Shown in pieces: positions 1-58,462 of a DNA stretch of 64,000 bases. Each line of letters begins with the position of its first letter. Positions within the stretch are counted from its first letter, which is position 1. Source of the DNA: Podarcis cretensis (Eukaryota); assembly GCA_951804945.1 (NCBI GenBank), contig OX638153.1:51398001-51462000 (forward strand), given 5' to 3'. The translations under genes were made by a program, and so were the position numbers. The notes under the pieces are model-generated. The model was not told the origin of the DNA. It did no database searches and saw only the letters and a program-made list of their open reading frames with translations.

Positions 1-1518
1 CCTGGATCCTCACTTCCTCCTCCATTTTATGCTCTCAGCAGGTACATGGAAGAGCTGCTGAGAAAAATAGTAGAGAGAGAATTGGCTTTCAGACGACAAC
101 ACTAAAAAAAAAAAAAAAGCTCCCTCCATGCTAATGGGAGTTAGTTTGACCACACCTGGAGGGTCACAGGTTTAGCCACCCATGCTTTGTGCATGAAGTC
201 AATTGCCACAGTGACTGGGAAGTAGAGCCCCACTGCTGGGCTGGGTGTACAGTGGATCACTGGCTCTACCCATCGTTTGTGTGGTTAAGATAGACCTGAA
301 TGCATTTGCTTGCATTCAGTGTGGTGGGTCCAAGCCTATGTCCCTACCAAATGAGATTAGACAGGCACCCTCCTTTCTGAACTCCAGGTGCATGGCAACA
401 GATGTCAGGCATTGTAAGGCAGGATTCGGTTTTATGATAATTTTGTGTTGTTTTATTTCTCTGCGTGGTCCTGCTGCCAGGTCCCATCTTGGGTTCTCTG
501 TGTGCAAAGGGCACTTTATTTGCATGCAGACCACAGAGAGAGGTTCTGGTTCATGGCAAATTGTCAGATAAGGCACCATATATTAAGAAATCCATTACCC
601 TTTCTATGTTGCAGGAACAGACTCACTTGGAAAAGACCAAAAGGCATCTAGGCGTGAGTCAGATTTTAAGAGGTCAGCAGTTTTGATAAGAAAAGGGAGT
701 TTGGGATGGCTCACAAATATACCACCAACCTCAAAAAAACCAGCTTCTTTGCATTCTTTCATTCCTGTTCACTGTTTTTCTCAACAACTTCTTTAGCAGA
801 TCCCTGGTCTATCATCACATATGACTTTCATACATGCACTGTATAAATTAATAATCAGATTGAAAGGTTATTTGAAGGACTTTCCATTAGATCAGAGATA
901 GGGAACCTGAGTTCCTCCCAGATGTTGTCTGACTCCCAGCTCTCAACATCTGGAGGGCCACAGGTCCATCCCCCTCACCCAAACTGGAGACTCCCTCTCC
1001 TTTAGCTTGCCACGGCCCAGGTCTCATTTCCCATGGAGATACCTAGATTTCATAGCCTCTTGAACAGAGTTTTCTGTTCCAAAGAAACAGCCTTTCTCCT
1101 GCCAGTTTTTTCAGTCTTATGCCACTGGAAAATGGGTGGTGAGTGGCATGAGTCTGAGTCTGCTTTTGGCCTTCTTTCTCATAGTATTTTTAGTGAAGGA
1201 ATGGACTTCCTGACCCCGTTGTTTGCACTGCTGTGTGTGAGAGCTCGGCATTGTTAGGCCACGGTATGCAAAGGGAGTACAATCCCATGCATGTTCCAGC
1301 TGTGATTATCTGATCTATTCCTATTTTGGGAATGGCTGGGTGTTTCCATGTCCCCTGAGCTTTCTCTGTTTTGCCTTCTCGCCTTCGTCTAATGTGCTTG
1401 GATTATGGGAAGATCTTGGATGTGTGTCAGAACCTTATTGTTGTTGTTTTGGTTTTAAGTGCCTTTAACCTAAAATGAATGGGTTCCTGCCGTCCCTCCT
1501 GCAAATATGTTTGTGGTA

Positions 1519-1806
1519 CAGTGGTGCCTCGCAAGACGAAAAGAATCCGTTCTGCGAGTCTCTTCGTCTTGCGGTTTTTTCGTCTTGCGAAGCAACCCTA
1601 TTAGCGGCTTAGCGGCTATTAGCGGCTTAGTGGCTTAGAAAAAGGGGGGGGGGAGCGAAAAAAATCGCAAGACTCGCAAGGCGTTTTCGTCTTGCGAAGC
1701 AAGCCCATAGGGAAATTCGTCTTGCGAAGCGCCTCGAAAAATGGAAAACCCTTTCGTCTAGCGGGTTTTTCGTCTTGCGAGGCATTCGTCTTGCGGGGCA
1801 CCACTG
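1519..1806. mobile_element. Tc1/mariner-superfamily MITE
   Basis: TA flanks, TIR CAGTGGTGCCTCGCAAGACGAA / TTCGTCTTGCGGGGCACCACTG, internal TTCGTCTTGCG repeats. Confidence 0.9.
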
Positions 1807-2436
1807 TATATTTGTGTGGCTGCATTTTCCCCCTTCCCCCTTAGATCCACCACCTGCCTCGTCCTCCCAGTTAACGTCTGTTTTAGCTCAGGACAGCTCC
1901 TCTCAAGGGCGATCATGCGCTTTAGTTTTATGGGAGCAGTAATGGGATTTCAGTACCAGGCTTAAGTCTTCCAGGTTGTGTAAAGGGTAACATAAAGGCA
2001 AGGGCATCCCTTTAGCAGACCACTGTTTAAACATCTGCATTACATCGGCGGACAGCAATAGTACATAGCCTAGCATGTAACTGTCATTTCCACCACCAGA
2101 AGAACTTAGGTAAAATGTTTAATTTTGCATATGTTGCATACTGTGACCATATGAAGATGCAGTATACCACATTCCACTTGTCCATTATTTTAACTTCCAG
2201 TGACTCTAGAACAGGGATGGGAAATGAGTTGTACTCACGGCTCCCATCAGTTCCAGACAGCATGGCCAATGGTCAGGGATGATGGGATGAATAGTCCAAC
2301 AACATCTAGAGCGCCACAGGTATTCAACCCCTACCCTTTTTTGTTTTTGTTTTTGTTTGTTACTTTGTTATGTATTTGTGTGTTTTTCTATTGTAAACCA
2401 CCCTTGGATGAAGGGTAGTATAACAATTTGAATAAT

Positions 2437-2944
2437 CAATCAATCAACCAACCAACCAACCTTTTTATTCGACCGTCAGTCAGAGAAAAGAATACAAATA
2501 CATTTGTCAATACACAGTTAAAACATCCAAGAAGATTTTAGAGCCTAGCCAACACTAAAAAGGCTAAAAAGATAGCCCCATGTCAATACAATCAATTATG
2601 GTCTTGCGAATAATCAAGACATCAATTCTATAAAACATATTTTGCTGCACTGTGCGAAATATGAGCAAGCCAGGGCTGAACTGATATTACCCTTGCTGGT
2701 ACCTTTCCTGGGAAAATCAGAGGCTCACTATGTCAGGTTCCTATTGGAAGACCGGACAAACGCTAGAACATTAGCAGTGGCGAAGTTTTTATCGGTGGTT
2801 GCAAAAACCAATGATCCCTATCTTTAAGTCTGAACAAAATGCTTTTTTAACCTGGAGGTAGGCTGTCTGAATTGTGCATTGCTTTGTAACGATTTGTTGG
2901 GTCTCTGGACTATAATAAAGATTGGTTGATTGATTGATTGATTG
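2437..2944. mobile_element. Two non-LTR retrotransposon 3' ends joined head-to-head
   Basis: Left part is antisense with an (AATC)n/(AACC)n tail and TTTATT. Right part is sense, with an LLHCAKY knuckle remnant, AATAAA and a (GATT)n tail. Flanked by ATTTGAATAAT on both sides. Confidence 0.7.
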
Positions 2945-5900
2945 ATTTGAATAATAATAATAATTCTCATAATGCTAAACTAGGGTTTAGAGTTGCACCC
3001 AAACCAGCCCATTGTTTGTAGTCTGCTCCTAAGTGTAGCTTACTTTCCAGCCATGTGGTTAAGTCTAGCATTTAGTATCCCTTCACAATTACATGGAAAT
3101 TCACAGAAGCAGAAAGATACTGAGAGGTAGGGATGCTGAGCTCACTGTATGGAAGGAGGCTAGCAGGGACAGCTTCCGCAATATGTGGGGCACATGCCAA
3201 GTGGATACAAGGTGGTTGCTGATTATCTGAATTGTCCCTAATGTACCTCAGCTAGCACCTGAGCTTTCTGGACCAAGCTTTCAAAATGCACAGAGTTCAA
3301 GTAGGCTCAAATCTTGCAGCCTTACATTCTACATATAACTGATCTCTTTTGTTATGGGTAGTACAATTCTATAAGAACGAGGAATCCACCCACCCCCCAA
3401 AAAAGCTTTCTTCTTGCTATTTAGGATGGGTTATTGCTTCTGAGAGTTGAAACTGAAGCATCTTCTGAAGTCATGGTGCTCTGACTAGCTGTATGTCAGA
3501 TGAAAATGAACCTGTGAAGTATCTCCCCAACTTAAAACTGTAGTGACTGGGAAAGATTAATTCCTGCCTCTACATGAAAAAGGTGGGAACCCTAATAACT
3601 GGAGGTTGAATGAAGTCCATGTTTAATATTCATTTTCAGCTCCTTTCCCTTTTGTTCAGGCTTTCCATCTTCCTCCTGTTTTCGTCGTAGATGTTACATA
3701 AATCTCTTTTGAATGCAGCTCAGACAATCAGACAATGGGGGCTTTCTGGAAACAAAATGTGTCACCTCAGTAATCTTCTGTCTCAGTATTATCAAAGAAG
3801 AGTTATACAAATAAAAAGAAAGGTGGAAATATTTTTGCGCGCTCTTGATCACTTATGTCTTGGGGGTGCGGGGAGTTGAAAAGAATGAGGAAAAGTTCAG
3901 TTTTTAATCATGGAAGCTTTGACACACATTTCATTCATGCATGCATATGTAAAAGCAAAGAGGTCTTTTAATCTAGGTTGAGTTTGCAGTAATGGAATCA
4001 AATTAAGCTCATGACCTGGTTCAGTCATTCTAGACTTGATAAACCATGGGTTGTAAAGCTGGGAATAAACAACTGAGACTCCTTTTGATACAGAAAACCT
4101 TGTTATAATTAATTAAAGTTTGCTACAGAAATGTAATTGGGAGTGGGGTAGCGCAGAGGCAGAGCTACTATCTTATATGCTGACACAGTCCTCGCATCTC
4201 CAAGTTGGGGTTGTGAAAGACTGCCATCTTAAATCCCTGCTGCCATTCAGCATGGGTAAGAAGTGGGAAACCAGTGGCCTTCCAGATATTATTGGGCTAC
4301 AGCTTCTCTCACCCCTGACCGTGGAACATGCTAGCTGAGGCAGATGGGACTTGGAGTTCAAGATAGCTTGATGGTCACAGGAACCCCAGCCCTGGTATAG
4401 ATGGCATTGAGTTAGAATAACCAATGCTCTACCTTGGTAAAAGGCCATTTTCTATGTATGTCAGAACAACATGACACTTGTAAAGTTAGTCCTCCTTCTG
4501 AAGCTACTTTGTATTTCCTTGCATTCTTTTTGTTTGTTTTCAGGTTATTTAGGGGGATCTTCTACCCCACTTGTTCATGTTCTGACTACTATTTTTGTTG
4601 GCTCATTTTGTACATTCTGGAATGTGCTTGCAGTGTGTGTATGTGTGTGTAGGCTACACATCCTCTGTTCACATGTAATGAACCAATGCTCCTCCGATCT
4701 TCATAGTTCTAAGCTCCCCATGCAGTTGAAGCTGAGTTGTGTCTGCTTCCGTGTCTGCATGTTGGCTAAAAATGGAATGTGTGGTTTACCTTAAGTACAA
4801 ACAGAAAATAAACAGCTATGACTACAAGTGTGCTCTTCTCGGGAGCTATTTGCTGTATGTACCATGTTTTGGTATTACGATGGTTGGACATCAGCTTATA
4901 TTTAAATATACAGAGTGTTTTCAACTAACTTTTACTCAGAGTAGACCCACTGAAACAGAGGAACTTGACTAAGTTAGGTCCATTAATTTAAATGGAACTT
5001 AGTTGTATACCACCCATAGTTCTTGTTGTACAAGCATATGCTCCACTGAGTGTCTTGAATTAATGTCCTCTTTGATGTGCCCAGCTACAAGTAGACTACA
5101 TATAGGCAAGGCCAGTGTTTCCCAACCGGGGGCCATATGGCCCCCTAGGGCCCCATGGATATTCTAGGGGAGCCCCAGGATATTCCAAGGAGGCCCCAGG
5201 TGAAAAATGTGTAAATGGGGGGCCATAGCCTGAGGCTAGGGGGCCGCAGAGGAAAGTGAGAAGTGAAGGGGGGGGGGGAAGGAAAAAATATGTATGAAAA
5301 TCCTGATTGGCTGGTTACCCTCTTGGCCAATCACAAGCTGGTAAGGGGGTAGCCCACCAGGACCTAGCGCTCCTTTTTGCCACGTGCATTTTCTTGGCAC
5401 AGTGCTGGTTTGTTTCGGGCAGGAGAGGGCGATAGCTGAGACTCCTGCTTCTTCTTTCCTGGTGTCTTTTGTTCAGATCAAAATGTGTGTTTTGAGCAAG
5501 GTCTCAAGGCTCAATAATTTTTGCACTTCAATTGTACTGTCAGTTTGCTTTGAGATTTTCATGAGACAATAAAAAAAAAAAGAAATCCTGTCTGCCCTGC
5601 TCCTAAAATAGGATAGTGACGTTACCCAGCTTCCAAGTTTTAATTTAGATATTGGCTTTCAAGTCCTCTGAAGATTGAAGAAACAATATATTTTTGTTCC
5701 CCAATATGTAATGATTATTTAAGGGTGTTTCCTGTTTTGTAAGATAATAACTACATCCTGGGTTGAATTAAGCCTGAAACTGAAAGGAGTTGTTCCAGAT
5801 CATTATTAAGAAACTAAGCAGAAGTAATCTCCAGTTACTTGTGTTTTTCCCCCTTGCAGCTGAAATTTTTAAAGCAATGTGTGTGACCCTTCAGAGGTAT

Positions 5901-12430: not shown

Positions 12431-13759
12431 CAGTGAGATGGGAAAGTATTTGATCCCTGGCTAAATTTGCCTGTTTGCCCTCTGACGAAGAAATGACCAG
12501 TCCATAATTTTAATGGTAGGTATATAGTAGCTGTGAGAGACAGAAAACCCCCAGAAACCCAGAGCACAAAAGTCAGAGATTGATGTGTATTGTAATGAGT
12601 GAAATAAATACTTGATCTCTTTGCAAAAGATGGCTTAGTACTTGGTGGCAAAACCCTTGTTGGCAATTACAGAGGTCAGATGTTTCTTGTAGGTGGCCAC
12701 CAGGTTTGCACACATCTCAGGAGGTATTTTGTCCCACTCCTCTTTGCAGATCCTCTCCAAGTCAGTAAGATTTCGAGGGTGATGTGTAGCTACTCGAACC
12801 TTCAGCTTCTTCCACAGATTTTTGATGAGATTAAGGTTTGGAGACTGGCTAGGCCACTCCAGAACCTTAATGTGCTTCTTCTTGAGCCACTCCTTTGTTG
12901 CCTTGGCCGTGTGTTTTGAGTCATTATCATGCTGGAACGCCCATCCTCAACCCATTTTCAATGCCCTGGCCGAGTGAAGGAGGTGCTTACCCAAGATTTG
13001 ACGATACATGATCCTGTCCATTGTCCCTTCGATGCGGTGAAGGTGTCCTATCCCCTTAGCAGAAAAACAGCCCCAAAGCATAATATGTCTGTTTTCATGG
13101 TGACTATGGTCCCAGCTGCCCTGAGATCATTGACAAGTTCCCCCCGTGTAGTTCTGGGTTGCTTCATCACCATTCTCCTGATCATTGCAACTCCATGAGA
13201 TGAGATCTTGCATTGAACCCCAGACCGAGGGAGGTTGACAGTTATTTTGTGTTTCTCCCATTTGTGAATTATTGCACCAGCTGTTGTCACATTCTCACCA
13301 AGCTGCTTGGCAATAGTCTTGTAGCCCAGTCCAGCCTTGTGCAGGTCTACAATCTTGTCCCTGACATCCTTGGACACCTCTTTGGTCTCGGTCATGGTGG
13401 CTACTTTGGAATCTGCTGGATTGATTGCTTCTGTCGACAGGTGTCTTAACGAGCTGGGATTACAGGTAAGACCTCTCCCTTACAGCAGCTTCTTCTAATC
13501 TCAGCTCGTTACATACAGTGAAGATACCAGGTAACCTGACATCTGGCTGGTTGATAGGGGATCAAATACTTATTTCACTCATTATAATTCACATCAATCT
13601 CTGACTTTTGTCTTCTGGGTTTCTGGGGGTTTTCCTGTTGTTATTCTGTCTCTCACAGCTAAAATACACCTGCCATTAAAATTATGGACTGGTCATTACT
13701 TCGTCAGAGGGCAAATGGGCAAATTTAGCAGGGGATCAAATACTTTCCCCCCCTCACTG
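12431..13759 (-). mobile_element. Tc1-family DNA transposon (IR/DR type), internally deleted and defective
   Basis: TA|CAGTG...CACTG|TA ends, about 200-bp TIRs with an inner/outer repeat (AAGTATTTGATCCC-like), and a transposase remnant on the - strand. Confidence 0.95.
12635..13395 (-). pseudogene. Tc1 transposase pseudogene
   Basis: [22 protein letters not shown]...LPRSG (HTH region), then a jump to a WGCFS-type motif, [20 protein letters not shown] (catalytic E replaced by K) and ...GFATKY*. Confidence 0.9.
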
Positions 13760-35966: not shown

Positions 35967-36081
35967 CTTAATGCAGAGGAAGTACTCTGAGCCGAACACT
36001 TACATTGACAACTTGCCAAAGGGGAAGGAGGGACTAGAGGAGCTCTATGATGATGTAGATGTTCCAGAGGCAACAACAATG
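35967..36081 (+). CDS. AFAP1L2: AFAP1L2 exon 13
   Basis: tccag|C...ATG|gtgagg, 115 nt. Encodes LMQRKYSEPNTYIDNLPKGKEGLEELYDDVDVPEATTM. Confidence 0.95.
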
Positions 36082-36351
36082 GTGAGGGTTTTGTTTTGTT
36101 GCAATTACAGCTCATGTTGATGGGGGGGGGACGGGACCATTTTGTTTTCCATTGGCTGCAGTTTGTATTGATAATGCCAGAAATAACAAGTGATCCCAAT
36201 TGCAAGGTGTCTGCAATTTGCCTTGTTTCAGGTCTGTACTGTTCTTTAACTGTATGTAATGTTTAAAGAATTTCATGCTGGCCTCTCTTGTTCTAAACAG
36301 AGTGGCATTTCTTGGGCGCTCTTCTAAGAAGATGCTTTTTATCTTTGACAG

Positions 36352-36591
36352 GAGGAAGTGCCCCAAAATGAAGGCAAAGATGAGGGGGATCAGGACAGAG
36401 TCTATCTAGACCTCACGCCAGTCAAATCCTTCCTTCATTGTGCTACCAAGAAGCAGGACCAGTTTTCCCCATCCGTTTCTCCATCATTGCAAAGAGCTTC
36501 CAGTAAGAGCTCAGCGGACTCTGAGAGAGACTCCTCCATCTTGCATAAAGAAGCAGATTTGAGTAGAAGATCACTGGAGATTCCAGACCCG
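36352..36591 (+). CDS. AFAP1L2: AFAP1L2 exon 14
   Basis: gacag|GAG...CCG|gtaatg, 240 nt. Contains DRVYLDLTPVKSFLH. Confidence 0.9.
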
Positions 36592-36978
36592 GTAATGCTC
36601 AAAACCAAATCCGAGATATCAAGGAGGGGCCATAGCTCAGTGGTAGAGCATCACATGCAGATGACCGCAGGTTCAATCCCCACCATCTCTAGCTAAAGGC
36701 CTCAGGTGTACGAGAGGCACTGCCAGTCAGGCCAGATGCTAGGGAAGTTTTTAATGTTTGATATTTTACTGTTTGATGTTTTAATTTGTTGGAAACTGCC
36801 CAAAGTAGGTGGGGCAATGCAGTCAGATTGGTGGCATATAATTTTTATGATTTATTCTATAACTAGACAAAACTTAGCATTGAGCAGCTTGCTGGGATCA
36901 TAAATGGACAGCCAGCTTCTGCTAGCCTTCTGTTGCTTAACCTCTGAAACCTTCTCTCTCATCCGACATCCCTAACAG

Positions 36979-37147
36979 AGGACTCAAGACATTGATGAGC
37001 CGCTCCCACCACGAACAACAACCATCAAAATTCAGGCACAACAGCAGCAAATTGCCTTTCCTCAGAGTGGCCCTGAGATTAAGGACACCACCACAATTAT
37101 GATTGCATCCAAAGAGAAAATGGAACGCTCCAAGGTGGTGAATTCAG
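36979..37147 (+). CDS. AFAP1L2: AFAP1L2 exon 15
   Basis: aacag|AGG...TCAG|gtgtgt, 169 nt. Contains RTTTIKIQAQQQQIAFPQS. Confidence 0.85.
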
Positions 37148-37350
37148 GTGTGTTTGCTGTCTGCAGTAATCTCTCTTTACCCAACAGCTTCATGACGGAG
37201 ACTTATGGTAGAGGCAGTGGCTGCTATCATTAGCTTTTCAGCCCATGTTTAAAACATGGCGCTAGTGTATTTAGCTGCTGGTTTAAAGGGAAAGTTCTTG
37301 GAATTTCAGTCTCTGTCCCTGAGCTTAATTTCTTCATCTTTTATTTGTAG

Positions 37351-37515
37351 CAGCTGTAGAAACCAAACTCGGCAAGAACAGGACTGAGGCTGAAGTGAAG
37401 CGATACTCGGAAGAAAGAGATCGCTTGGAGAGGGAAAAAGAAGAAATCCGCTCTCAGCTGGCACAGCTACGGAAAGACAGAAGGGAGCTGAAAGAGATGC
37501 TGATAAGCTGCACAG
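37351..37515 (+). CDS. AFAP1L2: AFAP1L2 exon 16 (coiled coil); tandem NAGNAG acceptor, alternative start at 37354
   Basis: tgtag|cag| acceptor, ACAG|gtaaac donor. Encodes AVETKLGKNRTEAEVKRYSEERDRLEREKEEIRSQLAQLRKDRRELKE. Confidence 0.93.
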
Positions 37516-37774
37516 GTAAACAAATGCCTCTCATTTCCACTTCATTTTCAGAGATCAGTGGAACGGGGCATATTGTTTTGGTCTCATGTGCTCCATTGAC
37601 ATGTAATCTGCTCTGAAAAGCCTCCACTTTAGGTGCGGGGGGAGGGCTAGTTCAGCAGCCACCCTCTTGTCTGCCACCATCATCTGAGGAGACAGACAGA
37701 CAGGCAATAGGGAAGAGTACACACTGCCCATCTACTGTTGGATTTCCACTTGCATGTGCTTCTTTCCTCGGCAG

Positions 37775-37968
37775 ACAAGAGCCTTTTGCCCACACTGGAG
37801 CAAAAACTGAAGGAAATAGAGGAGGAGTGCAAAAGGAAAGAAGATCAGCGCGTGGACTTGGAGCTGAGCCTCGTGGAGGTGAAGGAGAATCTCCGGAAAG
37901 CAGAGTCTGGGCCTGTAACACTTGGCACTGCGGTGGACACCACGCACCTGGAGAACGCAAGCCCTAAA
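37775..37968 (+). CDS. AFAP1L2: AFAP1L2 exon 17 (coiled coil)
   Basis: ggcag|AC...AAA|gtacgt, 194 nt. Encodes [19 protein letters not shown]...[20 protein letters not shown]. Confidence 0.95.
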
Positions 37969-38930
37969 GTACGTAGGGGGCTGTTTATAATCAGCATTGT
38001 TAGCAGAGTCGTTTTCAGCAAAGCGAAGTAGCTGAAGCCAGCAGCTGGTTCAAACTACGCATGATGCAGAAGATCCATGATTGCATTTTTTGATGTGTTT
38101 TGTAAAGCTCAAAAGGCAATTTGGTGGGTGGGCAGGGGGCTCAAAATAGCAGCACTGAGGAAGGAGGGGCTTAATGCTTTTCTCCCACACTATTTTCCTA
38201 GCCAGAATTGCACATGACCACCCTTGGAGGCTGGTAATAGCTATATGGATGCCTGTGTCTCCCAACAGCTAGGCCTAAATAGCATGTGAGGTTGACTGAT
38301 ACCTCAGTCATGATACCCCAAGGAGCCATACTGTCACGGAACCATAGATCCAATCACAGCACGTATGAGGAACGTTGTTCAGTTTGAGGAATACAGCTAG
38401 ACTTACAGACTGCCACATAGCTATGAGTTTTATGCGTTGCCATCAGGAGCAGCTGCCGAGCCCATCTCCTGCCACTCGTGTCACTGCCATGTCCTGGGAC
38501 AGTCTTTGGGTGGAGCCAATTGTCAGCGCAGTCAGGGCTATGTGGGTTCCACTTGGTGGGTGTACCAGATTGCCTTTGCCAAAGCACCCCATGGAGCTCT
38601 GACCTTGCCACTGCTCTGCCCCACCTTGTCCTGATATGCCGCAGTGCTGGAGTTGAGAGGGTGGCTTATAAATGTAGGACCTCATTGGCCCTTCCTGATA
38701 ACAACAGATAAAGCAACATAATTAAAACCAAAAGCATAAAGTCGATAAACAGCGCCCAGAGGTAGATCTAACAAGCCATTAATAAACAGCACTTTTAATC
38801 CTGATGCTTTGTGATGATGGAATATGAGATCTTTAATGTTCGGCAAGAAGGGCTCTCTGACCTGTGCCTGATGAACTATTTTAGACAATTGTGTATGACC
38901 ACAGCTATTATCTTGCCCCCATAAACACAG

Positions 38931-39053
38931 ATGAAGGTTGCCAACCCTATGAATGGCACAGAAAACTCGCCTGTCAATTCAGCAATGGCACTAAAAAACC
39001 GGCCTTTATCTGTCATGGTCACAGGGAAAGGAACAGTTCTACAGAAAGCTAAG
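38931..39053 (+). CDS. AFAP1L2: AFAP1L2 exon 18
   Basis: cacag|ATG...AAG|gtaaga, 123 nt. Encodes ...PVNSAMALKNRPLSVMVTGKGTVLQKAK. Confidence 0.96.
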
Positions 39054-39211
39054 GTAAGACATGTAGCAAGAATGCCTGTAGTGCTTATTATGGCAATAAT
39101 AATTTGCCCGTGGCCGATGACATATTTAAAACTATTGGGGTTTTGGAAAGAAATATATAAATATAAGGATAAGCCTTCAAGTGGGCCTATTTTTCCATTT
39201 TTGTTTTGCAG

Positions 39212-39238
39212 GAATGGGAGAAGAAAGGTGCTAGTTAG
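39212..39238 (+). CDS. AFAP1L2: AFAP1L2 final coding exon
   Basis: tgcag|GAA TGG GAG AAG AAA GGT GCT AGT TAG = EWEKKGAS*, the canonical AFAP1L2 C-terminus. Exons 2-19 sum to 2450 nt with consistent phases. Confidence 0.96.
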   Translation, partial: EWEKKGAS

Positions 39239-41166
39239 GAAATCCTAGCACCAATAATGGACTCAGTATTAGAAGTGGCCATTCGTGGACTACAGGATTC
39301 TCTTGCAAATACAGAATGGTCTAGATGAGGTAAAGCATGGCCAGCTGTACACCAAGAAATAATGGATGGACCAGGGTCAGAACCCAACATGGCCTTCATC
39401 AGACTAATGAATATGCTCCTTTTTTAGCAGAGGAGTGCTGTGCAGCTGAGAGAGTTAACCTAAGTGGAAACCTTGCTTTCTAACTTGGCCAGTGTACATA
39501 ATGATGCCTTTGTGTATTTCTACTTTGGTGTTTTACTGTTGTCCAATCCAGGATTTGTTGGTAGCAATAGAATAGCAAGAACTGAATTCTTGCCAGATCT
39601 GTTTAATGTTCTTCTGATACACCAGGGCCTGGGGATCACAGAGGTAAATTCAGTTTCCTGAGCTAAAATCCTGAAAGCTGGTTAAGTAAATACAAGTCTC
39701 TGTGTCAGACTTTTCTGTTGGAGAAGAGCTGTTCCAACCAACGGAGACAATTTTGGCCAGGGAAACCAAGAGACACAGCTAAAAGGTATTATTGTTGTAC
39801 ACAATTCAGCCGGACTTTCCACAAAGAATTCCTGACCAAAAAACGAGTACAGCTCAGTGGAGGCTCGTTTGTTAGAGCAAATGGGGGCAGTGTCCCACCA
39901 ACCCTTAGCCAGTTCCCACCCGCCTGCCTGCCTTCTTACTCACAACCAGTCCAGGACTGGCACTGGCAGTGCACATTCTCCTCCTTAGCCTCAGTTCTGC
40001 CCTTGTAGCACTCAGGAGGATGGGGACAAAACTTAAAATTAGTTGGCTATGTCTTTCATTGGCTCTGGCACCACCTCCTGTTGGCCTCCCATCCAACTAG
40101 TCCCAGTGGGTGACAACCACTGCTACAGCTTCTTAATTTTCAATGTTTAATGCTTGTACAAGGAAAGCCAGGGCTTTTTTCAGCCGGAAACTCAGTTCCT
40201 GCACCTCTCAGGTGGGTGCCATTGCCAATATAAGAGAACAAGGGAGGTGTTCTTGGGCAGTTCTGGCATCTCTTTTTCTAGAAAAATAGCACTGAAGAGA
40301 GCTATTATCAGTTGTCAGCACAAGAGCAATGCACTGGGTTCACAGGTGACTAGACATTCCAATACCCACAGACAACTCCTGTGATTAAGAAGGGCTTTCC
40401 AGTGGGCATAAGTAGCAGAGATATCTCATTATGACTAAGGATCTACACTTAAATGCTATAGATTAGAGGCTGTGCATGGATGGGAACTTAAATCTTTGTG
40501 GATTGGGGCCAGAAAGTCATTTAACGTAATTCTTTAGCCACTGCATCTGTCATTTGAGGAATAAAGGGGTGGAATCTTCTGTCCTAGCTTCCAAAATGTG
40601 ATTAAGTATGCTGTGGGGTGATTTGAATGCACTTTAGTTACTCTGGAATGCTTCAGGTTAATAATATACACGTAATAGTAGTGTGTAGGAACAGATGCCA
40701 CATCATCATATTCTGCACAATAGTTGGCATACTGTATGGAAGTTAAGTGCACAAAAGCGAAGGAGAATTTGTTTACCCAAGTATGGTGAATTTAATCATC
40801 CAAACATTTGGAAGAGTGGGGAATTCCACCCCTTTACCCTTGAATATATTCTTATCATTCTGTTTTCTGTAAACAAAAGTATAATTAGACCAAGGTAGAA
40901 CTTGACTGAGCTGTGTTCCCGAAACCCAAGGAGATTAAATTATGTATATAAGGCAGAGTTAGGTGTGGACTCTGTGCCAAAAATGTCAGGTTCCTGAATT
41001 TTAACCTTGAATATGAATAATTTTTCAAAGCCAGCTGTATACAAAGGAAAGAATTTTTTATTAAATTGTTTGTGCTAACACAGTACTAAATGCTGTAAAG
41101 ACCACAGGTGCTTGAGCTCAGTATCTCGCTATCCAAGGGCCTTTTCAGATGAACATTTTCTTGTGC

Positions 41167-42593: not shown

Positions 42594-43256
42594 ATGGATG
42601 TCAGGGGTTCAGGGAGAGAGGCGCAGAGGAGGGAGGAGACCGAGAGTGAGGGAGAAGGATTCCAGCCTGACGAGGAAGAGGACGACAATGACCCGAGGTG
42701 GTCCATGAGTCCGTCCAGTGAATCGGAGGATTCCCAAAAGGGAGCCCCCCTGGTCAAGCCAAGGGGAGCCCAAGGGGGAAGCAGTCAGGAGCAGGGGAAC
42801 GTAGGGGGAACCGCCAGTGGGAGTTGGAGATCGAGACCTGCTTCTCCACCGGAACGGAGTGAAGAGGGTGGAGTTACCAGTGTGTCGGGAGGAACAGAAC
42901 AAGGAGCAGAGGGGGGAAGGAGATCGGGGCAAGACGCCCTGCCGGAAGGGGCGGAAAGCAGTACCGGGAGCAGTGTGGCTGTTGAAAGGAAGGTCAGGAG
43001 CAACGTACGCGCGCCAAGTTCAAATGTGGAGGCGCGCGGAAGTGGGGAGAGCTCTGGGGAGGAGCCTGGTGCTAAAGCACGAAGGAGGGGGCAGCAGGCA
43101 GGAGAAGACTCAGCCTCTGGGGAGTCCCGGAAAGAGGGAACACAGGGGGGCAGGAAGACCCTGCGGAAAAGGAAGGAGAGGAAAAGGTGGAGCAGCACAA
43201 GCCTCTTAAATTGGTGCAGGGGAGGGACGGACTCAGAGGGGACTTCTAACATCTAA
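42594..43256 (+). CDS. LTR-encoded 220-aa ORF (intact copy of the Pol C-terminal extension)
   Basis: ATG GAT GTC...ATC TAA with no stops. Same frame and sequence as the Pol tail in the 3' LTR up to the duplication. Acidic N-part, S/G/E-rich middle, basic RKTLRKRKERKRW. Independent translation is not shown. Confidence 0.55.
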   Translation: MDVRGSGREAQRREETESEGEGFQPDEEEDDNDPRWSMSPSSESEDSQKGAPLVKPRGAQGGSSQEQGNVGGTASGSWRSRPASPPERSEEGGVTSVSGGTEQGAEGGRRSGQDALPEGAESSTGSSVAVERKVRSNVRAPSSNVEARGSGESSGEEPGAKARRRGQQAGEDSASGESRKEGTQGGRKTLRKRKERKRWSSTSLLNWCRGGTDSEGTSNI

Positions 43257-43382
43257 GGGTAACAGATGTGGAGCCACGGAGTTTGGATGTAATGACGACA
43301 ATGATCTTCAATAAAACCTTTTGTATATAACTTGGACTGGATTATGGTCTCTTGTGAGCTGGGACCCAGGGTGGCTCTGACA
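42599..43382 (+). repeat. 5' LTR (784 bp)
   Basis: TG...CA ends with 6-bp terminal inverted repeat; AATAAA at 43310-43315; direct repeat of 48345-49141. Confidence 0.97.
43205..43245 (+). promoter_or_regulatory. Putative LTR core promoter and transcript 5' end (self-primer)
   Basis: TATA-like CTTAAA (43205-43210) lies about 30 nt before an Inr-like TCAG (A at 43235). This is followed by GAGGGGACTT (43236-43245), which is complementary to the PBS. Confidence 0.6.
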
Positions 43383-43384
43383 GT

Positions 43385-43394
43385 AAGTCCCCTC
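43385..43394 (+). promoter_or_regulatory. Self-priming primer-binding site
   Basis: AAGTCCCCTC, 2 nt after the LTR end, lacks the TGG of a tRNA PBS and is the exact reverse complement of 43236-43245. Confidence 0.75.
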
Positions 43395-43444: not shown

Positions 43445-44521
43445 ATGAGTGCGGAGGAGCAGTTGACAGCTCTGCGAACTACAGTTTCCGAACTCACTGC
43501 TGCAGTCCTTGCGTCTCAGAAGAAGCATGACGAAATGGAGAAGCGCTGCCAGGACCTGCAAACCAGGTGGGAACGTGCAAGCAGGGAAGGGTTCCCAGGG
43601 TCCAGATCAGAAGGGATTGGACTTGGACGGAGGGGGGGCAGCCTAGTCACCCACTTCGATGGGAACCTGAAGCACTACCCCAGTTTCAGAGCAGACGTTT
43701 TGTATGCATTGCACTTGCTTCGTCATGACTTTAAAGATGAGGAGGAGAAAGTGGGGTTTATTGTTTCTCACTTGCATGGGCCGGCCAGAGACTGGTTGCG
43801 TAATTTGTGGCGTGAAGATGGCCCTGCCCGCCGCGATGCAGATGAATTCATTAAAGCAATGGATGCCTGCTTCCAGTCAACTGTAGATGTGGATCTTGCA
43901 CGCAGGGAAATTTTTGGATTGCGGCAAGGCAAAGCCACTGTGCGTCAGTACCATTCCAGATTTTTTGCTTTACTGACTGCGCTAAGCTGGGAGAAGGATT
44001 GTGCACCTGTGAGGGATTTGTTCTGGGAGGGGCTCAGCGGTCCCATTAAGGATGAACTTGCCAGGGGAGACAGACCCCAGACCCTGGAGGAGCTTGTGCA
44101 GAGGGCTTTGGCGATTGGGATAAGGCACGAGGGACGTCCTTGGCACACTGAGGAAGAACGTCAGGTGCGTCCACCAGCGAGGACGTCTTCTTTCATCCCC
44201 AGGGAGTTCAGTCAGTCACATCCTTCGCCACTGGGAAGGCAGGGGGAGGAGCCCATGGAACTTGGTGGTGCTAAGGCTCAAGCAACAGCCAGAGCCCCAG
44301 CTTCCGGTGCAGTAAAGGCACAGCCTCCTAGAGGGACCAGGAAGTGTTACATTTGCGACAGTGCACAGCACATGGCGAAAGAGTGTCCCCAGAGGCTGCA
44401 GAAACACACTGCAGCTTTAGCAACTGTTGCAGCAGAAATGATGCAAGCAGAGCAACCTCAGGGAAACGACAGTGCCTGGCTGGAAGCAGAGCTGCTGGGG
44501 CTCAGCCAGGCGAATCTGTAG
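43445..44521 (+). CDS. gag: Retrotransposon Gag (358 aa)
   Basis: gccATGa start, N-terminal coiled-coil-like heptads, capsid region with QGKATVRQYHSRF, EPMELG motif, CCHC knuckle CYICDSAQHMAKEC. Confidence 0.95.
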   Translation: MSAEEQLTALRTTVSELTAAVLASQKKHDEMEKRCQDLQTRWERASREGFPGSRSEGIGLGRRGGSLVTHFDGNLKHYPSFRADVLYALHLLRHDFKDEEEKVGFIVSHLHGPARDWLRNLWREDGPARRDADEFIKAMDACFQSTVDVDLARREIFGLRQGKATVRQYHSRFFALLTALSWEKDCAPVRDLFWEGLSGPIKDELARGDRPQTLEELVQRALAIGIRHEGRPWHTEEERQVRPPARTSSFIPREFSQSHPSPLGRQGEEPMELGGAKAQATARAPASGAVKAQPPRGTRKCYICDSAQHMAKECPQRLQKHTAALATVAAEMMQAEQPQGNDSAWLEAELLGLSQANL

Positions 44522-44534
44522 AGCAGTCCCCAGC
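44461..44534 (+). promoter_or_regulatory. -1 programmed ribosomal frameshift signal (slippery site plus H-type pseudoknot)
   Basis: G GGA AAC (44461-44467) in the gag frame, 6-nt spacer, stem 1 GCCTGGCTG/CAGCCAGGC (44474-82/44503-11), stem 2 GCTGGGG/CCCCAGC (44494-500/44528-34). pol is in the -1 frame. Confidence 0.9.
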
Positions 44535-47500
44535 GCTTTTGCAACGCACAGACCCTTTACCACCCAAGCCAGCGGTGCAGCTCACTGCAACACTTCAGTT
44601 GCCGAATGGAACCACCCTGGAAGTCCCCATCACGATTGATTCTGGGAGCAACGCAGATTTTGTGGGGACGCACTTTGTCAAGCAGCATCGCATAGCGCTT
44701 CTGCCAGCGACAACACCTCTGAACGTAGTCACGGTGGATGGCAGGAAATTGCTAGGAGGACAAGTTGTGCAACAGACGCCTCCCATGGTGATGAGGATTG
44801 GAAATCATCGAGAAGTCATCAGCTTCAATGTCACCCGCCTTTCAGACACGCCTATAGTATTAGGCATGAGTTGGCTGGAGAGACACAGTCCTGCTGTAGC
44901 GTGGTACCAACGGCAGATCACCTTTTGCTCATCGTACTGTGCTCAACATTGCATCCAGTCCAGCCAGGAGGAGGGAGCTGAGCAGCAGTTGCAACTTGGC
45001 ATGGTGCAGGCAGTACCCCGCAAGTACGAGGGGTTCCTGGAGGTTTTCTGCGAGAAGGAAGCTGACCAGTTGCCGCCCCACAGGCCTTATGATTGTGCCA
45101 TCGACCTGGTGCCAGGGGCGCAGTTGCCGACTGCAAAGCTGTATTCCATGTCTGAGGACGAGATGCAAGAACTCAGGGAGTTCATAGAGCACAATTTGAA
45201 GCGCGGATTCATCCGAGAATCGAAAGCGGTGGGGGGCAGTCCTGTTTTCTTTGTAAAGAAAAAGGACACGCCCCAAAAAAGACTCATTGTGGACTATCGA
45301 TTCATAAACAGTAAGACCAAACCCAAGGCCTTCCCCATGCCCAAGATAGATGATCTCCTGGCAACCGTAAGGAAGGGGAAGATCTTCACCAAATTGGATC
45401 TGCGTGGAGCGTATAACCTCATACGCATCCGGGAGGGCGATGAGTGGAAGACGGCCATGTTCACGCCTCTGGGCACGTACGAATACAGAGTGATGCCATT
45501 TGGTCTCCAAAATGGATCTCACGTCTTTCAAGCATTTATGCATCACGTGCTAGCGGGACTTCTCTACAAGAAATGCGTGTGTTTCCTCGACGACATCCTG
45601 ATCTTTTCGGAAACGGAGGAGGCCCATGAGAAGGACGTAAAGGAAGTCCTGCAGAGACTACGGGAGAACAAGCTCTACGCCAAGTTAGAGAAGTGCCAGT
45701 TTGATGTGACGGAAGTGGATTTCCTAGGCTACAAGCTGTCCGACAAGGGGCTGGCCATGGACAGCGCCAAGGTCCGCGCGGTGTTGGACTGGAAGAGCCC
45801 TCGCAATCGGAAGGAAGTCCAAAGATTCATCGGCTTCGCCAACTTCTACCGCAAATTCATCAGAGGTTTTGCAAAGGAGACGGCAGCGATCACGGACACT
45901 CTCAGTTCCAAGAAAAAGAGGTTCGTGTGGACGGAACAGGCGGAGCGCTCTTTTCAGAAGCTTAAAAGCCTTTTCGCCTCCGAGGAGCAGCTGCTGCACG
46001 TGAATCCAGGCAAGCCCATACGAGTAGAGACCGACGCGTCAGACAGAGCGGTTGGAGCCGTACTCCTGCAAGAAGATCCACATGGAAACTGGAGACCCGG
46101 TGCCTTTTACTCCAGAAAGCTCAGCAAAGCGGAGCAAAACTACACCATATGGGACAGGGAGCTGTTAGCCATTCACGCAGCGTTCAAAGCGTGGCGACAT
46201 TTCCTCATTGGAGCCAAGCACACAGTGCAGGTCCGCACGGATCACAAGAATTTAGAGTATTGGCGCACGGCGAAACTCCAGAGCCAAAGACACATGCGCT
46301 GGGCAGAGTTCTTCGCGGATTTCGACTTCAGGATAGAGTACGTCCCAGGGGACTCCAACGTTATAGCCGATGCGCTCTCCAGGAAACCGCAATATCTTGA
46401 GGAAGCGGCGCCAATAGCAGCCAGGCACATTTTTGCACCGCAGGCGTGGGCGTGCGCTGCCATCGCTGTCGACCTGGACGCAGTGCGACGCGCGTTGCAG
46501 GTAGATCAGTTTGCACAATCCAAAATAGAGGAGCTGCGTAGGGGTTCGCTGAGAGACGATGAGTTCCAGTTACGCGACGGACTGTTAACTCACAAGGGTG
46601 CCCTCTACGTGCCGAGCGACGAGCTCCGAGCAAAGGTTCTGCAGCAGTTGCACGACGCTCCCAGTGCGGGCCATTTCGGCAGGGAGAAGACAATAGAACT
46701 GGTGGCCAGGGACTTTTGGTGGCCCCAGATGCGAGGAGAAGTAGCGGAGTACGTCGCCAGATGTGACACTTGTCAGAGGTCCAAGCCAGTACACCAGAAG
46801 CCGGCGGGCTTACTGGAACCACTGGAAACACCACAGCAACCGTGGGAGAGGGTGGCGCTGGACTTCGTCACTGACCTGCCCAGTTCCAGAGGCAAGACAG
46901 CGGTACTGGTGGTGGTGGACTTGTTCACCAAGATGGCGCACTTCATTCCCTGCGCGAAGGTGGCGACGGCGGAACAGACCGCCAAGCTCTTCATCGACCA
47001 CGTGTTCCGGGCGCATGGGCTGCCGCGGGCCATCCTGTCCGACAGGGGGCGCCAGTTTATTTCCAATTTTTGGCAGAAGCTCCTAGGTATCCTGCGCGTC
47101 AAGATCAACCTAGCGTCGGCAAGACATCCACAAACCAACGGCCAGGCCGAGAGGGTCAACGCGATCATGCAGCAGTACCTGAGATGTTATGCAAATCAGC
47201 GACCCACAGCTTGGGTGGACTACCTACCGATGGCGGAGTTTGCCTACAACAACACGAAGCATGCGTCGACGGGGGTGACGCCGTTCTTCGCGAACAATGG
47301 ACGTCATCCCAGGACCTTCCCGGGGTTCGTAGCACCAAGAGAGGGGGAGCCGCAAGAGGCCGACCAGTTCGCTGCAGAACTACAAGAGGTGCACGAGGAG
47401 CTGCGGAGACATTTGGAGCTAGCCAAACAAGCATATAAGGTGCAGGCAGACAAAGGCAGAAGAGTGGGAGAGGACATCCAGGTGGGGGACTGGGTGTGGT

Positions 47501-48744
47501 TAGCGGCCCAGGCGATGCCAACCAAGTCGTTGGCCAAGAAGAAGCTAGGGCACAGGCAGCTAGGACCATACCAGGTGGAGGCTAAGATCAACCCCGTGGC
47601 TTTTCGACTGGCCCTCCCCGAAGGTTCCAGAGTCCACCCGGTTTTTCATAAGTCGGTGCTCACTCCCTACAAGGCCCCGCACAGGTTTCAGGAGTCTGAA
47701 ACAGTACCGCAGCCACGCACAGAGTCACCTAGGAGGGAGGGATCGCCTAGGGTCGAACCACTCAACGAGGTCACAGAGATCCTGGACTCGAGATGGGGGG
47801 AAGAGGGAATAGAATACTTTCTAGTCAGAGAGGGTGCACCAGTCAGTGCCAGTGGGTGGGTGCCGGACTACGCTTTAGACGAACCTCTTTTAAAGGACGA
47901 GTTCCATGCCCTTTTCCCACATAGACCCATGCCAGCCGAGTACTTCGATGACTGGCTCTTTACCCCCACATGTTCAGGCAGCACTTTCCACGGCTTTTCT
48001 TCAGCCGAGGAAAGAACGCCGAACTCAAACTCGCCCAGGGGATCGTGTTCGGGGGTGGACACAGAGCCCTCTTATTGGTGGGATGAGCAACCAGAGGAAG
48101 CCTGGCGCAAGAAATGGCTGAAGGGGCCTTGGCCGGCAGCACCAGACGAAGTAGCAATGGAAGAGGGAACTGCGAACATTTTGGGTGAAGAACCCGAATT
48201 CGAACACACGTACACCGAGCTGCCAGCAGAGGTCACGGACGTAGCCGAACTGTATCCTGCATCTACCTCCGAGGAGCTGCAGTTTCCACAACCCGCACCC
48301 GATGGGGGGGAGGGGGGAAGGGGGGGCTTCGAGGGGGGGATGGATGTCAGGGGTTCAGGGAGAGAGGCGCAGAGGAGGGAGGAGACCGAGAGTGAGGGAG
48401 AAGGATTCCAGCCTGACGAGGAAGAGGACGACAATGACCCGAGGTGGTCCATGAGTCCGTCCAGTGAATCGGAGGATTCCCAAAAGGGAGCCCCCCTGGT
48501 CAAGCCAAGGGGAGCCCAAGGGGGAAGCAGTCAGGAGCAGGGGAACGTAGGGGGAACCGCCAGTGGGAGTTGGAGATCGAGACCTGCTTCTCCACCGGAA
48601 CGGAGTGAAGAGGGTGGAGTTACCAGTGTGTCGGGAGGAACAGAACAAGGAGCAGAGGGGGGAAGGAGATCGGGGCAGGAGATCGGGGCAAGACGCCCTG
48701 CCGGAAGGGGCGGAAAGCAGTACCGGGAGCAGTGTGGCTGTTGA
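44467..48744 (+). CDS. pol: Retrotransposon Pol (PR-RT-RNaseH-IN-chromodomain plus an extension into the LTR), expressed as Gag-Pol
   Basis: Protease IDSGS; RT KLDLRGAY, MPFGL, FLDDILIFS; RNase H TDAS, DRELLA, TDHKNL, ADALSR; integrase HHCC, LDFVTDLP, SDRGRQF, HPQTNGQAERVN, GPY; chromo-like EVTEILDSR. No internal stops; the frame runs 400 nt into the 3' LTR. Confidence 0.96.
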   Translation, partial: RQCLAGSRAAGAQPGESVEQSPALLQRTDPLPPKPAVQLTATLQLPNGTTLEVPITIDSGSNADFVGTHFVKQHRIALLPATTPLNVVTVDGRKLLGGQVVQQTPPMVMRIGNHREVISFNVTRLSDTPIVLGMSWLERHSPAVAWYQRQITFCSSYCAQHCIQSSQEEGAEQQLQLGMVQAVPRKYEGFLEVFCEKEADQLPPHRPYDCAIDLVPGAQLPTAKLYSMSEDEMQELREFIEHNLKRGFIRESKAVGGSPVFFVKKKDTPQKRLIVDYRFINSKTKPKAFPMPKIDDLLATVRKGKIFTKLDLRGAYNLIRIREGDEWKTAMFTPLGTYEYRVMPFGLQNGSHVFQAFMHHVLAGLLYKKCVCFLDDILIFSETEEAHEKDVKEVLQRLRENKLYAKLEKCQFDVTEVDFLGYKLSDKGLAMDSAKVRAVLDWKSPRNRKEVQRFIGFANFYRKFIRGFAKETAAITDTLSSKKKRFVWTEQAERSFQKLKSLFASEEQLLHVNPGKPIRVETDASDRAVGAVLLQEDPHGNWRPGAFYSRKLSKAEQNYTIWDRELLAIHAAFKAWRHFLIGAKHTVQVRTDHKNLEYWRTAKLQSQRHMRWAEFFADFDFRIEYVPGDSNVIADALSRKPQYLEEAAPIAARHIFAPQAWACAAIAVDLDAVRRALQVDQFAQSKIEELRRGSLRDDEFQLRDGLLTHKGALYVPSDELRAKVLQQLHDAPSAGHFGREKTIELVARDFWWPQMRGEVAEYVARCDTCQRSKPVHQKPAGLLEPLETPQQPWERVALDFVTDLPSSRGKTAVLVVVDLFTKMAHFIPCAKVATAEQTAKLFIDHVFRAHGLPRAILSDRGRQFISNFWQKLLGILRVKINLASARHPQTNGQAERVNAIMQQYLRCYANQRPTAWVDYLPMAEFAYNNTKHASTGVTPFFANNGRHPRTFPGFVAPREGEPQEADQFAAELQEVHEELRRHLELAKQAYKVQADKGRRVGEDIQVGDWVWLAAQAMPTKSLAKKKLGHRQLGPYQVEAKINPVAFRLALPEGSRVHPVFHKSVLTPYKAPHRFQESETVPQPRTESPRREGSPRVEPLNEVTEILDSRWGEEGIEYFLVREGAPVSASGWVPDYALDEPLLKDEFHALFPHRPMPAEYFDDWLFTPTCSGSTFHGFSSAEERTPNSNSPRGSCSGVDTEPSYWWDEQPEEAWRKKWLKGPWPAAPDEVAMEEGTANILGEEPEFEHTYTELPAEVTDVAELYPASTSEELQFPQPAPDGGEGGRGGFEGGMDVRGSGREAQRREETESEGEGFQPDEEEDDNDPRWSMSPSSESEDSQKGAPLVKPRGAQGGSSQEQGNVGGTASGSWRSRPASPPERSEEGGVTSVSGGTEQGAEGGRRSGQEIGARRPAGRGGKQYREQCGC
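48301..48344 (+). promoter_or_regulatory. Polypurine tract region
   Basis: G-runs ending GAGGGGGGGATGGA immediately before the 3' LTR TG; translated in the pol frame as DGGEGGRGGFEGGM. Confidence 0.9.
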
Positions 48745-49141: not shown

Positions 49142-49168
49142 ATTGCTATTTTAGAAAAGTTTTTTTTT

Positions 49169-58157: not shown

Positions 58158-58462
58158 GGGCTCATATAGACTTCTTTTTGTGCCATATTTCTAGGCACAG
58201 GTCTGGACTTTAAAGCTCTGTGTCCAAGCAGTTATTTTTTTGTCCTGCTGCTTCCGCCAGGAAAACCTGCATTTTACTGCTGAACTGGAGCAAATGGCAA
58301 TCCACACAACCCATTTGCTGTTTGCTCTTATTCAGCGGTAAAACACATGTTTTCCTGGGGAAAGCGCTGGGGCAAAAATAAAATAAAATCGCTCAGATCC
58401 AGAGCTTTAAAGCCCAGACCTGTGCCTAGAAACATGGCGCAAAAGGAAATCTGGATGAGCCC
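58158..58462. mobile_element. Fully palindromic MITE (PIF/Harbinger-like)
   Basis: GGGCTCAT...ATGAGCCC ends; the arms are complementary over about 145 bp (e.g. TTTCTAGGCACAGGTCTGG / CCAGACCTGTGCCTAGAAA). Confidence 0.8.

Follow-up and report, generated by a model that had tools for sequence, protein, structure and literature searches.

Retrotransposon polyproteins that extend into their own 3' LTR are known from plants, where the available portions of two reports describe them in all CRM group A elements and in several Reina elements (PMC3059260, PMC3605345). The lizard element described here, from Podarcis cretensis, shares this extension with CRM group A. It differs in its animal host, in self-priming with a primer-binding site (PBS) that pairs with its own R instead of tRNA-Met, in having its chromodomain-like region upstream of the polypurine tract (PPT) with a tail that covers all of U3, and in the location of its copies, which lie in telomeric repeats at both chromosome ends and not at centromeres. 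With the Tf1/Sushi (V-clade) chromoviruses, as they appear in the part of PMC6317226 at hand, it has in common the PR-RT-RH-IN order, a Tf2-type SH3, a chromodomain-like region, TG..CA ends, a 5-bp target duplication and self-priming, which is the mode of those elements. It departs from them in carrying approximately 360 residues after the chromodomain, of which the last 218 are LTR-coded, in a chromodomain that fails the Pfam model, and in its concentration in TTAGGG.

Insertion into canonical telomeric repeats, with the resulting mosaics of repeat and element, is described for SART, TRAS, MoTeR, Zepp, GilM/T and the green anole Tx1-1_ACar, and all such elements in the accessible sections of PMC10088271 are LINE-clade or Penelope-like. 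The lizard element resembles them in this habit and resembles SART, TRAS and Tx1-ACar in its fixed repeat phase, but it is an LTR element with an integrase, inserts in both orientations, has 39% of its outer ends elsewhere and lacks strict sequence specificity. Targeting through the integrase C-terminus is documented, in the excerpts available, for Ty5 via Sir4 (PMC4700185), Ty1 via AC40 (PMC9673352) and CRM (PMC3059260). The Ty5 and Ty1 integrases have a long disordered C-terminus with a nuclear localisation signal (NLS) and a short targeting motif, and Ty5 is led by Sir4 to telomeric silent chromatin. Unlike the lizard element, these are Copia elements with an internally coded arm, Ty5 inserts near telomeres in silent chromatin, and no likeness in sequence is claimed.

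In the literature searched, which largely excludes subscription papers and does not take in Repbase Reports or Repbase/Dfam, no LTR element of a vertebrate was described from telomeric repeats, nor any integrase tail covering a whole U3, and the accessible parts of PMC3601003, PMC13320880 and PMC13700897 contain neither. The initial annotation of this locus knew of no Gypsy integrase tail of that extent. This stands insofar as we found no paper with a tail covering U3 into R, but entry into the LTR as such is known from CRM and Reina. Since 3'-LTR-entering ORFs are known in plant CRM elements, the LTR-coded tail is a variant and not a first, and the telomere invasion is the more surprising of the two. 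An earlier description of the family in Repbase Reports, as for the anole element, is possible.

Element architecture and the LTR-coded tail

The window, a stretch of 64,000 nucleotides, carries a single Ty3/Gypsy element in PR-RT-RH-IN order with env absent, and the closest named homologues of this element are Podarcis proteins. Its features are:

42599..43382, + strand: 5' LTR, 784 bp, TG..CA
42600..43256, + strand: open tail frame in the 5' LTR, 218 codons plus TAA, in the frame that pol uses on entering the 3' LTR
43152..43190, + strand: basic block, predicted NLS, its basic character kept in five families
43203..43214, + strand: LLNW codons overlapping a TATA-like box
43236..43245, + strand: predicted RNA 5' end and self-primer (EGT codons), from PBS covariation
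43310..43315, + strand: AATAAA signal, downstream of the tail stop
43385..43394, + strand: PBS, complementary to the self-primer
43445..44521, + strand: gag (capsid, zinc knuckle)
44332..48744, + strand: pol frame, PR-RT-RH-IN-SH3 (Tf2-type SH3), running into the 3' LTR, with an early end in the window copy
44461..44467, + strand: GGGAAAC heptamer, predicted -1 frameshift site, present also in 4 of 5 sister-family loci checked
47767..47922, + strand: degenerate chromodomain-like region, aligning collinearly to the Pfam-positive chromodomain of the relative P0012
47944..47997, + strand: conserved aromatic helix-like stretch, 8-residue S/T linker and FxGF, resembling a TND-interacting motif
48302..48344, + strand: G-run PPT, read as Gly/Glu codons
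48345..49141, + strand: 3' LTR, 797 bp
48664..48689, + strand: 13-bp tandem duplication, private to the 3' LTR of the window copy

Pfam gave no Chromo match in the integrase C-terminus of the window element, and the LTR-coded tail matched no Pfam entry, family or structure. TG..CA ends and a 5-bp target duplication were present in 19 of 20 dispersed copies; the window copy has no matching duplication (42594-42598 versus 49142-49146). Its 5' flank matches the last PPT bases, and that of another copy (L186) is similar, with a 5-bp flank match if three extra bases are allowed; these odd flanks possibly reflect unprocessed ends. Elsewhere in the window, exon-like frames of a host gene, which may be AFAP1L2, lie at approximately 36000-39240 on the same strand and end about 3.4 kb upstream of the element. 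Inverted repeats of 83-118 nt at 12440-13749 and 58158-58462 are probably DNA-transposon remnants.

As the initial annotation proposed, pol has no stop after the chromodomain-like region, crosses the PPT as GGFEGGMDV and enters the 3' LTR at 48345, and in the 5' LTR the frame stays open for 658 of 784 bp up to the TAA at 43254-43256. The 13-bp duplication was not mentioned there. It breaks the tail in the 3' LTR of the window copy, whose own Pol therefore departs from the tail frame and terminates at 48744; the duplication is absent from the contigs of runs X1 and X3. Among 20 dispersed copies of the same family (family A), found with a U5 pattern and chosen by coordinate order without regard to frame, all were open across the junction and the tail, 18 had a single 1556-codon frame and 18 had identical LTR pairs. 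Distinct junctions were in frame in 36 of 37 cases, and 140 of 145 LTR records, counted with overlapping loci unmerged, stopped at codon 219. The predicted Gag-Pol of 1852 aa is correct arithmetic for copies with the 1556-codon frame, given the predicted -1 shift, but the window copy comes to 1766. A T-poor composition had been raised as a caveat and does lower the number of stops, but it is insufficient as an explanation: dinucleotide shuffling of the 654-nt stretch left this frame free of stops in 103 of 20,000 trials. In the real sequence, the two remaining forward frames contain 3 and 8 stops.

The self-primer, suggested earlier to be coding, covaries with the PBS, and the pair occurs in three sequence states among four families. 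Complementarity of 10-13 nt with compensatory changes was found in families A, B, D and E, the 10-nt stretch at 43236 and the PBS changing together across A, B/D and E. This covariation puts the predicted RNA start at 43236, which is LTR position 638 and lies 18 nt before the tail stop. The TATA-like box on the LLN codons, also anticipated, sits approximately 30 nt upstream of that start. Folding of the whole region gave a z of only -1.1, with the primer stem present in both the MFE and the centroid structure, and the LTR contains no canonical G-quadruplex motif. The idea that solo LTRs would scatter this ORF in expressed form finds no support: the lone Met within the LTR is codon 36, the predicted RNA start lies downstream of nearly the whole frame, and family A has few solos (363 5' LTR ends versus 365 outer ends).

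Outside this genome, the full tail occurs in two Podarcis muralis proteins, P0002 and P0003, and a profile search for it matched only P0001, P0010 and P0013 among the best 150. In the distant P0011, P0012 and P0015 (Vipera latastei), a PPT-like run is followed by a shorter extension, first acidic and then basic, which in two of the three ends in basic residues and LLCW. Judged from the protein sequences, these extensions appear to read into an LTR; none of the three tails aligns significantly to that of family A.

The conserved stretch ending in FxGF shares with the TND-interacting motifs (TIMs) that bind LEDGF/HRP2 a helix-like hydrophobic part, an 8-residue linker and FxGF followed by acidic residues, as far as the consulted part of PMC9987994 goes. 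In contrast to TIMs, the lacertid linker is S/T-rich and not acidic, and the motif lies before the LTR, outside U3; it would point to gene bodies and not to telomeres. The pattern, a short motif with a helix assigned by pattern only, recurs in P0001-P0008, P0011, P0012 (twice) and P0024. A PDB sequence search of the motif region returned 0 matches, and a complex prediction of the lizard LEDGF IBD (P0161 398-487) with the FxGF region scored 0.02, which speaks neither for nor against the pairing. A possible role of the motif would be as a tether to gene bodies for dispersed insertions.

Selection on the tail

Four sister families in the same genome have LTRs of 759-826 bp, end the frame at the same place and share 52-55% tail identity with family A. 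For dN/dS in U3 only, we used a codon-blind alignment, trimmed by 3 codons at the start and 25 at the end, and gave transitions a three-fold weight. Values were 0.35-0.51 in all 10 family pairs, which come from 5 copies and are not independent; upper 95% bounds were at most 0.75, and all 10 pairs showed a third-position excess. The unweighted whole-tail dN/dS was 0.18-0.34, versus 1.4-3.1 and 0.6-1.0 in the shifted forward frames. Gaps behaved as expected of coding DNA in the initial annotation, since all five coding gap blocks were multiples of 3, and the four post-stop blocks were each 1 bp. In family A, synonymous/nonsynonymous counts were 7/5 for shared variants versus 4/19 for singletons (Fisher p 0.022, n=59); in family B, from a sample chosen by protein score, they were 31/24 versus 33/51 (p 0.057, n=30).

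The frame kept in four sister families, the dN/dS values and the in-frame-only indels together argue that the tail is selected as a protein. The proposal of a U3 that is coding family-wide and under purifying selection is thus borne out: the family consensus has no stop before the PPT, and U3 lacks the frequent shared frameshifts and stops, with dN/dS near 1, expected of an unconstrained frame. In all probability the tail is translated and functional. It is far looser than the integrase core (approximately 50% versus 85-90% identity) and of low-complexity S/G/E/R composition; motif blocks within it are invariant across the five families, and the block conserved best is basic and resembles an NLS. 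The number of CK2 sites in the tail was not clearly above that in shuffles (12 versus 7.8, 113/2000). Family B junctions were out of frame in 18 of 31 cases, mostly through G-run length changes at the PPT. These copies are spread over the tree, as repeated slippage in older copies would produce, and a family B sub-lineage without the tail was rejected (10 tree changes versus 10.2 shuffled).

Copies in telomeric repeats

Family A is very young, with a median of 22 substitutions among 55 copies of 5.7 kb. It has 728 exact LTR ends in the assembly, 363 of them belonging to 5' LTRs, and 222 of its 365 outer ends run directly into in-phase (TTAGGG)n. The remaining 143 (39%) lie elsewhere, the window copy in mid-C5 among them. 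The telomeric placement is invisible from the window alone and for that reason had escaped the initial annotation. Perfect telomeric repeat amounts to approximately 0.36 Mb, or 0.024% of the assembly, which gives a density ratio of approximately 6,500, or 117 if 20 Mb of repeat is assumed. Telomeric flanks were in one phase in 85 of 86 cases, with a duplication of GTTAG or its complement (44 and 41), showing both orientations.

Among the 38 terminal 10-kb stretches, 27 contain the repeat, 25 the element and 24 a mosaic of both, and the repeat at chromosome ends is on the strand expected of true telomeres. Summed over all 38 ends, the terminal 10 kb hold 209 kb of element versus 50 kb of repeat. 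Telomeric repeats contain elements at 11 left ends and 14 right ends, and (CCCTAA)n alternates with whole elements over the initial 82 kb of C6 and the initial 53 kb of C3. Interstitial arrays far from the ends are also filled, and in contigs of a separate public run (X4) the LTR start abuts CCCTAA repeats. Centromere targeting was rejected because both chromosome ends are occupied.

The large interstitial arrays at C3:121.825-121.96 Mb and C2:4.615-4.65 Mb are partly degenerate, with strand switches and many family A copies, and also hold four sister-family LTR remnants, one of them in phase. A 4.3-kb internal-deletion derivative (internal positions ~1190 to 3399 missing) recurs; it retains a frame of 817 codons that ends in the tail, and telomeric arrays are among its insertion sites. 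Its loci in the assembly (G000) are C6:8607-12918, C1:3703700-3708400 (L175), C3 at ~121.88 and 121.94 Mb, and C2 at ~4.62 Mb.

The telomeric copies are separate integrations. LTR pairs were identical within 11 of 12 comparable elements (from 19 rows, with 2 solos and 5 further rows left out) and different between neighbours. No two of 35 telomeric copies were identical, all differing by at least 3 substitutions, and one was identical to a dispersed copy. On the tree, telomeric copies are intermixed with dispersed ones (16 changes versus 16.4 shuffled), which rules out a telomere-specific sub-lineage in family A. Integration shows a local target preference, W-N-N-[S..S]-N-N-W, and a matrix built from 19 dispersed sites picks the observed repeat phase but weights the telomeric array at only 0.4-0.74 of background; DNA preference therefore explains the phase and not the enrichment. 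The enrichment very likely comes from targeted integration.

The sister families have 1 telomeric end genome-wide versus at least 1,676 outer ends, and none of 60 flanks examined was telomeric. As their tails are equally conserved, either the family A arm has changed or older insertions have been lost by telomere turnover. No tail variant tracked telomeric location; the best of 8 tests (Fisher p 0.043) concerned a synonymous variant. Among the best family B full-length-type hits, 30 of 60 lie within 0.5 Mb of an end versus 1.3% expected, and the whole lineage may therefore share a telomere-proximal bias. The DNA immediately internal to the arrays is crowded with older sister families, for example at C6:82-99 kb, C3:59-97 kb and C14:0.2-0.26 Mb of the same assembly, and some subtelomeric sister-family copies are segmental duplicates.

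Integrase arm and rival explanations

Here, a coding U3 under protein selection occurs in a family concentrated in (TTAGGG)n. By analogy with Ty5, Ty1 and CRM, the integrase C-terminal arm may both import the element and tether it to telomeric chromatin, a reading to which we give about an even chance. The proposed route would start from the conserved and selected pol frame through the PPT and all of U3. RNA is predicted to begin at position 638 of the 5' LTR and to self-prime, and the predicted -1 shift would yield a Gag-Pol ending 6 codons into R. The long arm would likely carry the element into the nucleus, NLS function being predicted for the basic block. Integrase-type insertions, seen with TG..CA ends and a 5-bp duplication in one repeat phase, in both orientations, at chromosome ends and in interstitial arrays, would follow, with W-N-N-[S..S]-N-N-W selecting the phase without net enrichment. 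The enrichment itself would be supplied by a protein tether to a telomere-bound host factor, as suggested by the C-terminal arms of the Ty5, Ty1 and CRM integrases. That the U3-coded part, rather than another part, would supply telomere homing is doubtful. We likewise consider it only a tentative idea that a vertebrate LTR element, with TERT apparently present, turns most chromosome ends into repeat-element mosaics by way of a shelterin- or telomere-chromatin-binding motif in its U3.

A TRFH-binding-type motif was found once in pol, in the last helix of the chromodomain, and is absent from the tail; this candidate was rejected. A TRFH domain search of the assembly gave no match, and neither did its control. 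Two matches to the telomerase RNA-binding domain at C7:10397127-10399308 (L195, L196) indicate that TERT is apparently present. AlphaFold2 on the SH3-to-end region, from a 6-row alignment, gave a pLDDT of 32, poor even on folded domains, and is no evidence for disorder.

The tail might instead be a genuine protein arm that serves only nuclear import or RT/IN function, with the enrichment due to the degenerate chromodomain, to Gag, or to simple access, for instance if the particle enters through the nuclear envelope at sites where germ-line telomeres cluster. We regard this as possible, though unlikely. The tail is common to five families while only family A is in arrays, its best-kept block is the basic one, and the Ty1 arm, according to the portion of PMC9673352 available, serves import and RT stimulation besides targeting. 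The chromodomain, however, is 80% identical between families A and B and so differs less than the tail, access at the envelope accounts poorly for filled interstitial arrays far from the ends, and the end bias of family B is perhaps lineage-wide.

Much less probable is that the frame is open mainly for the sake of the RNA, with promoter constraints mimicking protein selection and the amino acids mattering little. With a stop ahead of the PPT, the 3' UTR would exceed 700 nt, the TATA-like box and primer overlap the last codons, and the tail is of low complexity, without family or structure match and at a dN/dS of only 0.35-0.51. Yet trimming 3 codons from the start and 25 from the end leaves the signal of selection in place, this signal is specific to pol-frame third positions, motif blocks are invariant in five families, and stop avoidance alone would not lower dN two- to three-fold. 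Recombination between chromosome ends or assembly artefacts as the origin of the mosaics is very improbable and largely refuted already, for although simple duplication accounts for some of the subtelomeric family B copies (L075 and L088 have their flank and their stop in common) and many assembled ends begin inside an element, so that true ends were not reached, LTR pairs match within elements and differ between neighbours, telomeric copies stand at least 3 substitutions apart with one identical to a dispersed copy, both orientations keep one exact phase, and the X4 contigs show the LTR-CCCTAA junction independently.

The tail of this element shows that 640 bp of a promoter region can be overprinted with a frame under measurable selection as protein. 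In the usual view, vertebrate telomeres consist of uninterrupted TTAGGG. The mosaic ends found here, in which the repeat is mixed with an LTR element that is actively inserting, bear on shelterin loading and telomere transcription, as well as on how telomere length is measured in wall lizards and how their chromosome ends are assembled. A natural comparison of integrase tethering is offered by five related integrases that share the LTR-coded tail, one homing to arrays and four not.
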